From assembly GCF_057098645.1 (NCBI RefSeq), contig NZ_CM169472.1: DNA of 64,000 nt; one strand, 5' to 3'. Under the pieces are notes generated by a model, which searched no databases, was not told where the DNA came from, and saw only the letters and a list, made by a program, of their open reading frames with translations. The first letter of the stretch is position 1. Every line of letters starts with the position of its first letter. The translations under genes and the position numbers were made by a program. Positions 7,330 to 38,890 of the stretch are shown one piece after another.

Positions 7330-7513
7330 ATTTCTCTGAGATGTTCGCAAGCGGGCCAGTCCCCTGAGCCGATATTTCATACCACAAGAATGTGGCGCTC
7401 CGCGGTTGGTGAGCATGCTCGGTCCGTCCGAGAAGCCTTAAAACTGCGACGACACATTCACCTTGAACCAAGGGTTCAAGGGTTACAGCCTGCGGCGGCA
7501 TCTCGGAGATTCC
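7330..7513 (+). ncRNA. ssrS: 6S RNA (RNA polymerase sigma70 holoenzyme regulator)
   Basis: sequence ATTTCTCTGAGATGTTCGCAAGCGGGCCAGTCCCCTGAGCC...CTCGGAGATTCCC recognised as 6S RNA, located between zapA and fau as in reference; ends approximate. Confidence 0.9.
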
Positions 7514-7587
7514 CTTCTTATCTGGCACCAGCCATGACGCATCTACCAGAACTCCCACTGATATTATCCCGACAAGAAATCCGCAAA

Positions 7588-8136
7588 ATGATTCGGCAAC
7601 GTCGTCGTGCGTTAACGCCGGAACAACAGCAGGAAATGGGTCAACAAGCCGCTACCCGGATGATGACTTATCCCCCGGTGGTGATGGCACATACGGTCGC
7701 TGTATTCCTCTCTTTTGATGGCGAACTCGACACCCAGCCACTCATAGAACAACTCTGGCGCGCCGGTAAGCGCGTATATCTTCCAGTTTTGCATCCCTTT
7801 AGTGCCGGTAATTTGCTGTTCCTGAATTACCATCCGCAAAGTGAACTGGTGATGAACAGGTTGAAGATCCATGAGCCAAAACTGGATGTGCGTGACGTGC
7901 TACCCCTTTCCCGATTAGACGTGTTGATCACACCGCTGGTCGCCTTTGATGAGTACGGTCAGCGCCTGGGAATGGGCGGAGGTTTTTATGATCGGACCTT
8001 ACAAAACTGGCAGCACTATAAAATGCAACCGGTGGGTTATGCGCATGATTGTCAGTTGGTGGAAAAACTCCCCGTTGAAGAGTGGGATATCCCTCTTCCT
8101 GCGGTGGTTACACCGTCGAAAATCTGGGAGTGGTGA
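7588..8136 (+). CDS. fau: 5-formyltetrahydrofolate cyclo-ligase
   Basis: ORF 7390..8136 trimmed to MIRQRRRALTPEQQQEMGQQ (182 aa); upstream part of ORF overlaps ssrS and is not coding. Confidence 0.88.
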   Translation: MIRQRRRALTPEQQQEMGQQAATRMMTYPPVVMAHTVAVFLSFDGELDTQPLIEQLWRAGKRVYLPVLHPFSAGNLLFLNYHPQSELVMNRLKIHEPKLDVRDVLPLSRLDVLITPLVAFDEYGQRLGMGGGFYDRTLQNWQHYKMQPVGYAHDCQLVEKLPVEEWDIPLPAVVTPSKIWEW

Positions 8137-8196
8137 GGGCGACACACCTGCATCGCCCTGATTGACATCGTTGATTCTTTAACCTAATTTAGTGAG

Positions 8197-8336
8197 TAAG
8201 GGTAAGGGAGGATTGCTCCTCCCCTGTGACTGACTGTTAATAAGCGCTGAAACTTATGAGTAACAGTACAATCAGTATGATGACAAGTCGCATCATAACC
8301 CTTCTCCTTCAAGCCCTCGCTTCGGTGAGGGCTTTA
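8197..8336 (+). ncRNA. sibC: Sib antitoxin sRNA, copy 1 (SibC-like)
   Basis: sigma70-like promoter TTGACA(8162-8167)-17 nt-TAATTT(8185-8190); GC hairpin GCCCTCGCTTCGGTGAGGGC plus TTTA at 8313-8336; fully antisense to ibs ORF; ends approximate. Confidence 0.7.
8237..8296 (-). CDS. ibsC: Ibs type I toxin peptide, copy 1 (19 aa, MMRLVIILIVLLLISFSAY)
   Basis: hand-translated minus-strand 20-codon ORF, hydrophobic, preceded by AGGAGA RBS; too short for ORF track. Confidence 0.8.
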   Translation of the reverse strand: MMRLVIILIVLLLISFSAY

Positions 8337-8588
8337 CCGTTACAGCCCCATGCTGCCCTGCTATCGTAAACTCTCTTTAAATAAGCACAACGCATTGATC
8401 TACCTTTAAATTTTTTCTTCGAGCGCACTCGTAAAACGTCATGTAAGACAGACACACATTGCAGGGATAAGGGATGAATTACGGCAGTAAACGTGGGCGA
8501 TGAAGTGTCTATCAAATGATCGGTTCAGGGCGATACATCCCGCATCGCCCTGATTGACATCGTTGATTCTTTGACCTAATTTAGTGAG

Positions 8589-8728
8589 TAAGGGTAAGGG
8601 AGGATGACTCCTCCCCTGAGACTGACTGTTAATAAGCTGGGAAACTTATGAGTAACAGTACAATCAGTATGATGACAAGTCGCATCATAACCCTTCTCCT
8701 TCAAGCCCTCGCTTCGGTGAGGGCTTTA
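8589..8728 (+). ncRNA. Sib antitoxin sRNA, copy 2
   Basis: same promoter and terminator architecture shifted by 392 bp. Confidence 0.65.
8629..8688 (-). CDS. Ibs type I toxin peptide, copy 2 (19 aa, MMRLVIILIVLLLISFPAY)
   Basis: hand-translated minus-strand ORF; differs from copy 1 at one residue (S to P). Confidence 0.75.
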   Translation of the reverse strand: MMRLVIILIVLLLISFPAY

Positions 8729-8916
8729 CCGTTACAGCCCTGTGCTGTCCTGCCATCGTAAATCCCCATTAAATAAACACAACGCATTGATCTGACTGTG
8801 ATTTATTTTCTGGAGCAGACTCGCAAAGTAGAATGCGCAACGCGGCAACGGTGTGGAGAAGGGATAAAAAAACGGGCAAGTCAGTGACCTGCCCGTTGAT
8901 TTTCAGAGAAGGGGAA

Positions 8917-10149
8917 TTAGTACAGCAGACGGGCGCGAATGGTACCCGGAATAGCTTTCATTGCCTGCAGCGCTTTTTCGGCAACGTCTTCGTCGGCTTC
9001 AATATCAATAACCACATAACCCATCTGGGCGGAAGTTTGTAGATATTGCGCGGCGATGTTGACGCCCTGCTCGGCGAAGATTTTGTTCAGCGCAGTTAGC
9101 ACGCCCGGACGGTTTTCGTGGATGTGCATCAGACGACGCCCACCGTGCAGTGGCAGCGAGACTTCCGGGAAGTTCACCGCAGAGAGCGTTGAGCCATTGT
9201 CAGAATACTTGATCAATTTACCCGCAACTTCCAGGCCGATATTCTCCTGCGCTTCCTGAGTCGAACCGCCAATGTGTGGCGTCAGAAGGACATTGTCGAA
9301 TTCACACAGCGGAGAGGTAAATGGATCGCTATTGGTCGCTGGTTCCGTCGGGAATACGTCGATTGCCGCCCCCGCCAGATGTTTGCTCGCCAGCGCATCA
9401 CACAGCGCCGGAATATCCACCACAGTACCGCGCGAGGCATTAATCAGCAGCGAGCCGGGCTTCATTAGTGAAATCTCTTTCGCACCCATCATATTTTTGG
9501 TGGACGGATTCTCTGGTACATGCAGACTCACCACATCGCTCATATTCAGCAGGTCAGAAAGATGCTGTACCTGAGTGGCGTTGCCCAGCGGCAGTTTATT
9601 TTCAATATCATAAAAGTAAACATACATTCCCAGCGATTCAGCCAGAATGCCCAATTGCGTACCAATATGACCGTAGCCGATGATACCCAGCTTTTTGCCG
9701 CGCGCTTCAAAAGACCCCGCCGCCAGTTTGTTCCACACGCCACGGTGCGCTTTAGCATTGGCTTCCGGCACGCCGCGCAATAGCAGCAGCAGTTCGCCAA
9801 TCACCAGCTCCGCAACAGAGCGCGTATTTGAGAACGGTGCGTTAAATACCGGGATCCCGCGCTTTGCCGCCGCATCCAGATCAACCTGGTTTGTTCCGAT
9901 ACAGAAACAGCCAATAGCGACCAGCTTTTCTGCGGCGTTGATCACGTCTTCAGTCAGATGGGTACGGGATCGCAGGCCGATGAAGTGGGCATCGCGGATG
10001 GATTCTTTTAATTGTTCATCATCCAGCGCGCCTTTGTGAAATTCGATGTTGGTGTAACCAGCTGCACGAAGGCTTTCCAGCGCCTTTTGGTGCACGCCTT
10101 CTACCAGCAGAAACTTAATCTTGTCTTTCTCCAGCGATACCTTTGCCAT
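8917..10149 (-). CDS. serA: D-3-phosphoglycerate dehydrogenase
   Basis: 410 aa; MAKVSLEKDKIKFLLVEGVHQKALESLRAAGYTNIEFHKGALDDEQLKESIRDAHFIGLRSRTHL. Confidence 0.97.
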   Translation of the reverse strand: MAKVSLEKDKIKFLLVEGVHQKALESLRAAGYTNIEFHKGALDDEQLKESIRDAHFIGLRSRTHLTEDVINAAEKLVAIGCFCIGTNQVDLDAAAKRGIPVFNAPFSNTRSVAELVIGELLLLLRGVPEANAKAHRGVWNKLAAGSFEARGKKLGIIGYGHIGTQLGILAESLGMYVYFYDIENKLPLGNATQVQHLSDLLNMSDVVSLHVPENPSTKNMMGAKEISLMKPGSLLINASRGTVVDIPALCDALASKHLAGAAIDVFPTEPATNSDPFTSPLCEFDNVLLTPHIGGSTQEAQENIGLEVAGKLIKYSDNGSTLSAVNFPEVSLPLHGGRRLMHIHENRPGVLTALNKIFAEQGVNIAAQYLQTSAQMGYVVIDIEADEDVAEKALQAMKAIPGTIRARLLY

Positions 10150-36126: not shown

Positions 36127-36550
36127 AAATTATCCTTATTTTTAGGGTACCGTCCGGCGGTAAAAATAAAATACTCGTGCGGTTTAATGAAAGCAATTGG
36201 GTACGCGAGAAGAAAAACCCCATAAACCAAAATAATAAAACCTTAAATAACAACAATATGAAATTGATATTTTTAAAGTCAACTTTGTATTTGTTATGTT
36301 TATCACAAAATCAACATTTTGTTTGTTATTGTATTTGTGATGCATATCTCTATTTATTTATTGAATGTTCGAAAACATACTTTTCTAATACAATGTTTTT
36401 TCGCTATACCCCTTTATAGATTCTGAATTCTCACCTGTCGGCTGTTTTCTCCTCATCTCATGTGACATATTCCCACACTTTACTCAAGGAAGATTGTCAT
36501 GAAAGCACTGAACCGCCCCGGGTTTCCTGGAGAGTATTTTATCTGTGAAC

Positions 36551-37438
36551 TCAGGCTGCCAGATCATTATTTCCGATGGAAGCATAATAAGCTTTTTCTG
36601 CTTCTGCCGGAGGAATATGGCCCAGCCTTTCCAGCAATCGTCGATTGTTATACCAGTCCACCCACGTGAGTGTGGCCAGTTCCACTTCTGCACGGTTTTT
36701 CCAGCTCTTACGGTGTATTACCTCCGCTTTGTAAAGACCATTGATGCTCTCCGCCATCGCGTTGTCATACGAGTCGCCAGTACTCCCTGTTGATGCCAGT
36801 AATCCGGCTTCCTTAAGCCGCTGCGTGTAGGCCAGCGATACATACTGAGAACCTTTATCACTGTGATGGATTGTGCCGGACGGCCGACGGGCCCACAACG
36901 CCTGCTCCAGTGCATCCAGCACGAATGTTGTTTCCATGGATGATGAGACCTGCCATCCCACGATGTATCCGGCGAACACATCAATGATGAACGCCACATA
37001 AACGAAGCCCCGCCATGTGCTGACGTAAGTAAAATCAGCCACCCACAGCTGGTCAGGTCGTTCTGCCACGAACTGACGGTTTACGCGGTCGCCTGCGGCA
37101 ACGGCTTTCCGGCTGATGGTCGTACGGACCTTTTTACCCCGGAGAACACCGGCAAGTCCCATAACCGCCATGAGACGTGCCACAGTGCATCTGGCCACTC
37201 TGATACCTTCCCGTAACAACTGACGCCAGACTTTACGCACACCGTATACCTTGTGATTTTCATCGTATACGCGCTGTATCTCTCTCTTCAGCCAGTCATC
37301 GCGCTGAGCACGGGCACTGCGTTTATCAGGATGATGTCGCTGTTGCTGACAGTGGTAATACGTTGACGGGGCAATATGCAGTTCACTGCATACCGGTCCG
37401 ACCCCGTACTGCTCACGCAGCTTATCCAGCAGCGGCAT
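36551..37438 (-). CDS. IS629 transposase OrfB (DDE catalytic part; expressed as OrfAB via -1 frameshift at A-run)
   Basis: 295 aa; DDE-type integrase core; orfA stop and orfB ATG share one nucleotide (TAATG) next to AAAAAA slippery run. Confidence 0.9.
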   Translation of the reverse strand: MPLLDKLREQYGVGPVCSELHIAPSTYYHCQQQRHHPDKRSARAQRDDWLKREIQRVYDENHKVYGVRKVWRQLLREGIRVARCTVARLMAVMGLAGVLRGKKVRTTISRKAVAAGDRVNRQFVAERPDQLWVADFTYVSTWRGFVYVAFIIDVFAGYIVGWQVSSSMETTFVLDALEQALWARRPSGTIHHSDKGSQYVSLAYTQRLKEAGLLASTGSTGDSYDNAMAESINGLYKAEVIHRKSWKNRAEVELATLTWVDWYNNRRLLERLGHIPPAEAEKAYYASIGNNDLAA

Positions 37439-37764
37439 TATTTTTTCCAGAGGCGGTCGAACTCCGCCTTCGCAAAATAAGCGGAAGCCTGGCGAAGGAT
37501 ATCGTTACTGCGGCGCAGTTCACGATTTTCACGTTCCAGCTCTTTCAGACGCTGACGTTCAGCGGTGGTGAGTCCACCATCACCACTCCCGGTATCCCGC
37601 TCATGCTGGCGAACCCAGACACGCAGAGTCTCCGGCGTACAGCCAATCTTTGGGGCAATGGAACAAATTGCCGCCCACTGTGAGTCATATTCATCCTGAC
37701 TTTCCAGAACCATACGAATCGCCCGCTGACGGACTTCGGGGGAAAAACGAGTATTTTTAGTCAT
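37438..37764 (-). CDS. IS629 transposase OrfA (HTH part)
   Basis: 108 aa; [57 protein letters not shown]. Confidence 0.9.
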
Positions 37765-38719
37765 CCTGTTTACCTCTTTCTCAGGGAGTTTAGTCTCCAG
37801 GATTTCCGGGGCGGTTCACACCTGTTTCATTAACCTCATTTCGCCCACAAAAATCTCTTGCTATCGCCATTGGCGTGCTTGCCGTGGTTGTGCTGCCATT
37901 TCTCTCGTATTACACCGTTAATGAAGGTGAACGCGGCATTTTGCTGCGCTACGGAAAAATCGTAAAAGTTGCCGAGCCGGGTCTGGGTTTTAAGATCCCG
38001 TTTATGGAAAGCGTGGAGAAAATTTCCACGCGTAATCAGGCTGTGGTCTATCAGGGATTACAGGCCTACAGCCGCGACCAGCAACCGGCACAAATGACAG
38101 TATCAGTCAGCTTCCACATTAAACCTTCAGAAGCAGGCGCGGTTTATACCACCTACAACACCATTGAAGCATTAAAAGATCGTCTGATTGTCCGTCAGTT
38201 GCCAACTCAACTGGAGAACGTTTTCGGCCAATATACCGCCATCAGCGCTGTACAGGATCGTACAAAACTGGTTCAGGATCTGCAAAATGCCATGCGCAAA
38301 GCCGTTGTTGGGCCAGTGGTAATTGACGGGGTCCAGATTGAAAATATTGATTTTTCTGACGCTTATGAAAAGTCGATTGAAGACCGAATGAAAGCAGAAG
38401 TCGCCATTGCCACGCGTAAGCAAAATCTGGAAACAGAGAAAATCCAGGCGCAAATAGCGGTAACTCAGGCCCAGGCAGAAGCAGACAGTAAACTGGCGGC
38501 AGCCAAAGCAGAAGCGGAAACTATTCGCGTAAGAGGCGCGGCAGAGGCTGAAACTATTCGTTTAAAAAGTGCGGCTGAAGCAGAAGCAATCCGCCTGCGC
38601 GGTGAAGCTCTGCGGGATAATCCCGGACTTGTAGCCCTCACCACTGCCGAACGTTGGGACGGTAAACTGCCCGATACCATGATCCCCGGCAGCACAGTTC
38701 CGTTTATCTCTACTAAGTA

Positions 38720-38756: not shown

Positions 38757-38890
<134 letters not shown>

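Follow-up and report, generated by a model that had tools for sequence, protein, structure and literature searches.

The intergenic region between fau and serA in the window (the whole 64,000-nt stretch of contig NZ_CM169472.1, RefSeq assembly GCF_057098645.1, that was analyzed here) very probably carries two intact tandem type I toxin-antitoxin modules of the sibC/ibsC type, a common and already annotated polymorphism in which each Sib RNA is predicted to repress the ibs mRNAs of both modules. For this reading, our analysis supplies the sequence identity, the family membership, the gene layout, and the frequency in the population; toxicity, the repression mechanism, and the roles of TRD1 and TRD2 are taken from published work in K-12.

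Organization of the fau-serA region

An earlier note on this sequence had proposed two Sib/Ibs type I modules between fau and serA, 392 bp apart, and described a single sibC/ibsC module at this locus in K-12, with tandem pairs at two other loci; all of these points held. With the Rfam SIB_RNA model (RF00113), two plus-strand matches were obtained: 8162-8312 (134.6 bits, E = 1.6e-27) and 8554-8704 (137.6 bits, E = 2.9e-28). Both matches cover model positions 1-147 of 147 and exceed the gathering score of 56, which places both in the Sib RNA family, and two 19-codon ORFs accompany them. A repeat finder detected a direct repeat of 289 nt, whose two arms (8147-8435 and 8539-8827) share 90% identity and are spaced by 392 nt. 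The coordinates of all features are given in Table 1.

The K-12 MG1655 annotation lists one sibC/ibsC unit (b4446/b4665) between fau and serA and the pairs sibA/sibB and sibD/sibE. We looked in MG1655 for the same two copies at fau-serA and it has one, so the proposed copy-number difference from K-12 is real; the locus, the orientation, and the 141-nt Sib RNA are shared with the window. The segment between the two window copies is 31% identical, without gaps, to the serA-proximal segment. The repeat finder revealed neither flanking inverted repeats nor signs of a mobile element around the fau-serA duplication, and the terminator of serA was the sole call in a terminator scan of 8100-8950.

The 6S RNA gene ssrS lies directly upstream of fau, at 7330-7513. 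The lengths given for the fau product, 200 aa in the O145 record and 182 aa in K-12, reflect a different choice of start codon.

Table 1. Features of the fau-serA region (positions in the window)
Feature	Position	Strand	Description	Basis
fau	7534-8136			RefSeq annotation of 99.9% identical genome
serA	8917-10149	minus		RefSeq annotation of 99.9% identical genome
Repeat unit 1 (fau-proximal)	8137-8435		begins directly 3' of fau stop codon	direct repeat and alignment
Inter-copy segment	8436-8528		without counterpart in single-copy strains; diagnostic for two-copy state	
Repeat unit 2 (serA-proximal)	8529-8827			direct repeat and alignment
serA intrinsic terminator	8871-8897	minus	12-bp stem followed by TTTTT; in the flank, outside both modules	terminator scan
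Sib-1 promoter	8162-8190	plus	-35 TTGACA 8162-8167; 17-nt spacer; -10 TAATTT 8185-8190	read from sequence
Sib-1 antitoxin RNA	8198-8338	plus	SibC type, 141 nt	Rfam and homology to annotated K-12 sibC
Sib-1 TRD1	8243-8265		GCU at 8246-8248	
Sib-1 TRD2	8296-8312			
Sib-1 terminator hairpin	8311-8334			
ibs-1 toxin ORF	8237-8296	minus	MMRLVIILIVLLLISFSAY	translation; RefSeq WP_010723220.1 'IbsC'
ibs-1 RBS	8303-8308	minus	AGGAGA, 6 nt before ATG	read from sequence
Putative ibs-1 promoter	8363-8390	minus	-35 TTGTGC 8390-8385; 16-nt spacer; -10 TACGAT 8368-8363	
Sib-2 promoter	8554-8582	plus	-35 TTGACA 8554-8559; 17-nt spacer; -10 TAATTT 8577-8582	sequence and alignment
Sib-2 antitoxin RNA	8590-8730	plus	SibC type, 141 nt	Rfam, fold, alignment to K-12 sibC
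Sib-2 TRD1	8635-8657		UGG at 8638-8640	
Sib-2 TRD2	8688-8704		identical to Sib-1	
ibs-2 toxin ORF	8629-8688	minus	MMRLVIILIVLLLISFPAY (S17P)	translation; RefSeq WP_071525914.1 'IbsC'
ibs-2 RBS	8695-8700	minus	AGGAGA, 6 nt before ATG	read from sequence
Putative ibs-2 promoter	8755-8782	minus	-35 TTGTGT 8782-8777; 16-nt spacer; -10 TACGAT 8760-8755	homology with unit 1

Sib RNAs, ibs ORFs, and their promoters

The first base of each SIB_RNA match lies in the promoter, at the -35 hexamer, 36 nt ahead of the Sib +1 annotated in K-12, and the matches end 26 nt short of the annotated Sib 3' end. The Rfam coordinates are therefore unsuitable as transcript ends, and we set the ends of both window RNAs by homology to the annotated 141-nt sibC of K-12. 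The resulting extents agree with the plus-strand RNA of about 140 nt that had been described as fully covering each ibs ORF: both ORFs lie inside the corresponding Sib gene, and each Sib RNA spans the whole ORF and its RBS.

Alignment with K-12 sibC gave identities of 99.3% for Sib-1, which has a single difference at +30, and about 97% for Sib-2. In TRD2 (CUCCUUC) and in the stem of the terminator, both RNAs cluster with SibC and apart from SibA, B, D, and E; judged by sequence, both window copies at the fau-serA locus are of the sibC subtype. In the closest RefSeq record (O145 RM9872), the ibs ORFs are annotated and the Sib RNAs are not.

The predicted folds have energies of -53.9 kcal/mol (z = -5.8) for Sib-1 and -55.3 kcal/mol (z = -4.9) for Sib-2. 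In both minimum free energy structures, positions 1-6 pair with 101-106 (P1), +47 to +54 form a loop (P5), +107 to +113 are unpaired, and a 10-bp terminator follows. The published architecture of SibC consists of the P1 closing stem, the P5 hairpin loop (TRD1), the single-stranded J1/7 (TRD2), and the terminator P7 (PMC2943612), and the folds predicted for both copies match it. The stem of the terminator hairpin is GC-rich, as the earlier note had described, and the U-tract that follows is short (UUUACC).

Both copies also have the features of an Ibs type I toxin, that is, a hydrophobic ORF of 18-19 aa that is preceded by an SD sequence and lies antisense to a Sib gene, wholly inside it; the minus-strand orientation, the 19 codons, and the AGGAGA RBS noted previously were found for each. 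The ibs-1 ORF aligned with K-12 ibsC with zero nucleotide differences. Unit 2 carries UGG in place of GCU at +49 to +51 (Ibs S17P) and a P2 loop different from that of K-12 sibC/ibsC. The toxicity of K-12 IbsC has been published (PMC2943612, PMC8309996), and the Pro17 variant of copy 2 is a predicted toxin.

The Sib promoter hexamers and the +1 context in the window are those of annotated K-12 sibC. The assignment of these promoters rests on this identity, since a generic sigma-70 promoter scan of 8100-8950 called no site, neither for the Sib RNAs nor for ibs. The thresholds of the scan also miss the real K-12 sibC promoter; therefore, the null result was not counted against transcription. The description of the Sib promoter as near-consensus was thus correct for the -35 TTGACA but not for the -10 TAATTT, which agrees with TATAAT at 3 of 6 positions.

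Transcription of ibs-1 would start near 8355, about 7 nt downstream of the -10 element. The mRNA would then run to the Sib +1 and measure roughly 159 nt, in agreement with the length of the ibsC mRNA that Han et al. employed (159 nt; PMC2943612). Sib transcription start sites have been detected in O157:H7 EDL933 and agree with those of K-12 (PMC10469882). We infer that both modules are expressed in the window strain.

Differences between the two copies and predicted cross-repression

Sib-1 and Sib-2 differ at 6 of 141 positions, namely +17 and +18 (P2 loop), +30, and +49 to +51. The last three lie in the P5 loop and read GCU in Sib-1 and UGG in Sib-2; Ibs codon 17, to which they are complementary, changes from AGC (Ser) to CCA (Pro). 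The copies had been described as diverging outside the toxin-antitoxin core. This is true of the 97 nt downstream (78% identical), but the core itself also differs, at the six positions above, including the TRD1 triplet.

In the scheme of Han et al. (2010), TRD1 extends from +46 to +68 and TRD2 from +99 to +115 (PMC2943612). The window copies differ at 3 of the 23 positions of TRD1 and at none of the 17 of TRD2; the whole of +52 to +141 is identical, TRD2 included, so that the longest perfect non-cognate Sib-ibs duplex is 90 bp and spans the RBS and start codon. The computed duplex energy of TRD2 (+99 to +115) is -28.2 kcal/mol in all four pairings, cognate and non-cognate, whereas that of the P5 loop (+45 to +56) is -19 to -20 kcal/mol for cognate and -8.5 to -9.5 kcal/mol for non-cognate pairings.

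These comparisons can be set in the mechanism proposed for each module. The minus-strand mRNA would encode the 19-aa hydrophobic membrane toxin Ibs, and the 141-nt plus-strand Sib RNA, fully complementary to the ibs mRNA, would pair with it through TRD1 in the P5 loop, which lies within the ORF, and through TRD2 in the single-stranded J1/7, which lies over the RBS and start codon. Pairing would block Ibs synthesis and set off decay of the mRNA. The two antitoxins would then back each other up through the shared TRD2 rather than form two insulated systems.

Since TRD2 and the remainder of +52 to +141 are identical, Sib-1 is predicted to repress ibs-2, and Sib-2 to repress ibs-1. By analogy with the K-12 mutants, we consider it probable that each window Sib also represses the other ibs mRNA; TRD2 is the likeliest route because SibC with either TRD swapped to the SibD type still represses ibsC, and only the double swap abolishes repression (PMC2943612). 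The prediction is an extrapolation from the engineered TRD1-swap mutant of SibC, and the Sibs of K-12 are generally cognate-specific.

The alternative that the modules are mutually insulated, with each Sib repressing its own ibs mRNA only and the TRD1 triplet sufficing for discrimination, seems unlikely to us, although it has several points in its favor. The three contiguous differences fall in the P5 loop, the presumed start point of pairing, and non-cognate pairing of this loop is about 10 kcal/mol weaker. To provide SibC with the TRD1 of SibD, Han et al. mutated precisely G49-C50-U51, the same triplet being used to switch the specificity of SibC to ibsD, and they found no cross-reaction among the K-12 Sibs except on ibsA, repression of its own target only being reported for most of the five pairs (PMC2943612). 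Moreover, among about 1860 two-copy genomes, hardly any has the same triplet in both copies. On the other hand, TRD2 and 90 contiguous nucleotides are identical between the window copies, TRD2 alone is enough for a TRD1-swapped SibC to repress ibsC, and the K-12 pairs that do discriminate differ in both TRDs.

The pairs sibA/sibB and sibD/sibE of K-12 resemble the window pair in being arranged head to tail within one intergenic region, 335-376 bp apart, but their partners differ in TRD1, TRD2, and the terminator stem, whereas TRD1 is the only TRD that differs between the window copies. The window pair thus lacks the K-12-like combination of differences in both TRDs between co-resident copies, and predicted cross-repression remains our preferred reading.

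The ldr/rdl and zor/orz systems likewise combine a small hydrophobic toxin with an antisense RNA, duplicated in one spacer with a copy number that varies among strains (PMC2887945). Their sequences are unrelated to sib/ibs, and their antitoxin RNAs overlap the mRNA in part only, unlike Sib, which covers the entire ORF and the translation initiation region (PMC2943612).

Distribution and alleles of the two-copy arrangement

Of 5426 complete E. coli genomes searched, 1857 (34%) contain the 121-nt junction 8425-8545, which cannot occur in single-copy strains. Probes covering the repeat matched at two places in about 1870 genomes and at three in none; a third copy was sought with a 205-nt probe, and no genome among the 5426 had more than two places. 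The closest complete genome to the window is that of E. coli O145 RM9872 (99.9% identical over 1251 nt), whose RefSeq annotation reads fau, ibsC (WP_010723220.1), ibsC (WP_071525914.1), serA, with positions that map exactly onto the window ORFs. The haplotype of the window itself is rarer than the two-copy state: segment 8236-8440 was matched at >=99% identity in 52 of the 5426 genomes, many of them O145:H28, with scattered others; all 52 have two annotated ibsC genes. Published gene counts of Ibs also vary, with six in O157:H7 EDL933 and seven in Sakai (Fozo et al. 2010, PMC2887945); another study gave five copies in K-12 and listed four in strain NRG857c. The two-copy state at fau-serA is already known and not new, because the junction is present in 1857 of 5426 genomes, both ibs genes are annotated in RefSeq, and the published Ibs counts are strain-variable.

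Tandem repeats carry a general risk of misassembly, and nothing beyond that risk points to an assembly artefact; the copies can be told apart at many positions and by the sequence that follows each of them downstream, and the same structure recurs in the 1857 independent complete genomes. We regard an artefactual origin of the duplication as next to impossible.

To count alleles at Sib +49 to +51, we used short probes centered on the triplet, so that the 28-base exact seed of megablast must include it. UGG (Ibs Pro17) is the commonest allele in E. coli, with 3240 genomes, followed by GCU (Ser17; 2166 genomes) and UCC (Gly17; 1847 genomes); together, the three account for 7257 of 7294 detected copies. 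The triplet-probe search found zero genomes with two UGG copies. Two GCU places occurred in three genomes only, with one place on a plasmid, and two UCC places in one genome.

These frequencies bear on whether one of the copies is a decaying, non-functional duplicate. Copy 2 carries Ser17Pro within residues 6-19 of IbsC, the region reported necessary for toxicity (PMC8309996), and copy 1 has an A in place of a G in the promoter spacer. Nevertheless, both copies have kept their promoter hexamers, RBS, start codon, stop codon, terminator, and predicted fold intact; Pro17/UGG is the commonest allele in E. coli and is also that of two other Escherichia species; and segment 8236-8440 is 100% identical in the first 34 of the genomes listed. 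Decay of one copy is therefore very improbable, and we retain the reading of two intact modules.

In a scan of one genome per species with an exact 19-base pattern, which is too strict for non-matches to mean absence, the fau-serA module was recovered twice in E. coli and once in each of two further Escherichia species (strains E1V33 and MOD1-EC7003), where the single copy at the locus is of the UGG type. No match at the locus was obtained for E. albertii, Salmonella, or Citrobacter with this exact pattern, which is not readable as absence. Tentatively, the single UGG copy may be ancestral.

The two-copy arrangement seen in O157:H7 and in numerous further E. coli strains, annotated in RefSeq as 'Ibs family toxin' and ibsC, has units about 392 bp apart, as in the window, and the same inter-copy segment (82-92% identical). 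The order of the alleles differs: JL05, O157:H7, and an E. coli collection representative carry UGG (Pro17) and then UCC (Gly17), whereas the window carries GCU (Ser17) and then UGG (Pro17). In these three, the second copy has one TRD2 change (+113 U), in contrast to the identical TRD2s of the window.

Strain background of the window

After argO, RM9872 carries a segment of approximately 12.5 kb (L039 20922-33482) that is absent from the window, at about 20921-20925; therefore, the window comes from a related but different strain. The extra segment is P4-like and encodes a primase-helicase, an Icd-like protein, an ogr/Delta-like zinc-finger protein, a phage polarity suppression protein, an integrase, and an IS3 transposase.

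An IS3-family insertion sequence occupies 36509-37818 on the minus strand of the window, with a programmed-frameshift pseudoknot (Rfam ALIL, 37367-37483). It lies where RM9872 has the intergenic region between cmtB and a prohibitin-family gene and is 96.6% identical to an IS3 copy elsewhere in that genome. Just past the end of the element and a short stretch of resumed homology with RM9872, Rfam matched the sRNA ES036 (CssrF) at 38791-38833 on the minus strand, scoring 53.5 bits (gathering score, 37.6). For the region corresponding to 12588-18849 of the window, the 99.99% identical RM9872 record lists scpA (frameshifted), meaB, and srsR (internal stops) as pseudogenes; going by this annotation, the methylmalonyl-CoA (scp) operon may be decaying in this lineage.

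Implications for Sib-ibs recognition

The discovery value of the locus is small, in that the family, the mechanism, and the variation in copy number among strains are published and both ibs genes are in RefSeq. For annotation, the Sib RNAs themselves can be added, as they are absent from the closest RefSeq record. Beyond this, our analysis adds only the observation of a haplotype with two SibC-type modules that differ in TRD1 and not in TRD2.

The scarcity of genomes with the same triplet twice fits selection for distinct TRD1 loops but is just as compatible with inheritance from a small number of ancestral haplotypes. Since shared descent may explain the pattern equally well, we drew no conclusion about selection from it. 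In E. coli, variation among the fau-serA modules concentrates on one triplet, and selection could keep co-resident copies partly distinguishable at TRD1; the changes in residue 17 of the toxin would then be a by-product of recognition between the RNAs, and the shared TRD2 would preserve cross-protection; we offer this as a conjecture that is more doubtful than probable. If it were true, the Ser-then-Pro order of the window would represent a second, independently assembled pairing, possibly produced by gene conversion. Co-resident SibC-type modules with different TRD1 and shared TRD2 could serve, in place of engineered mutants, as a natural test case for the two-domain model of recognition put forward by Han et al. 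(2010).
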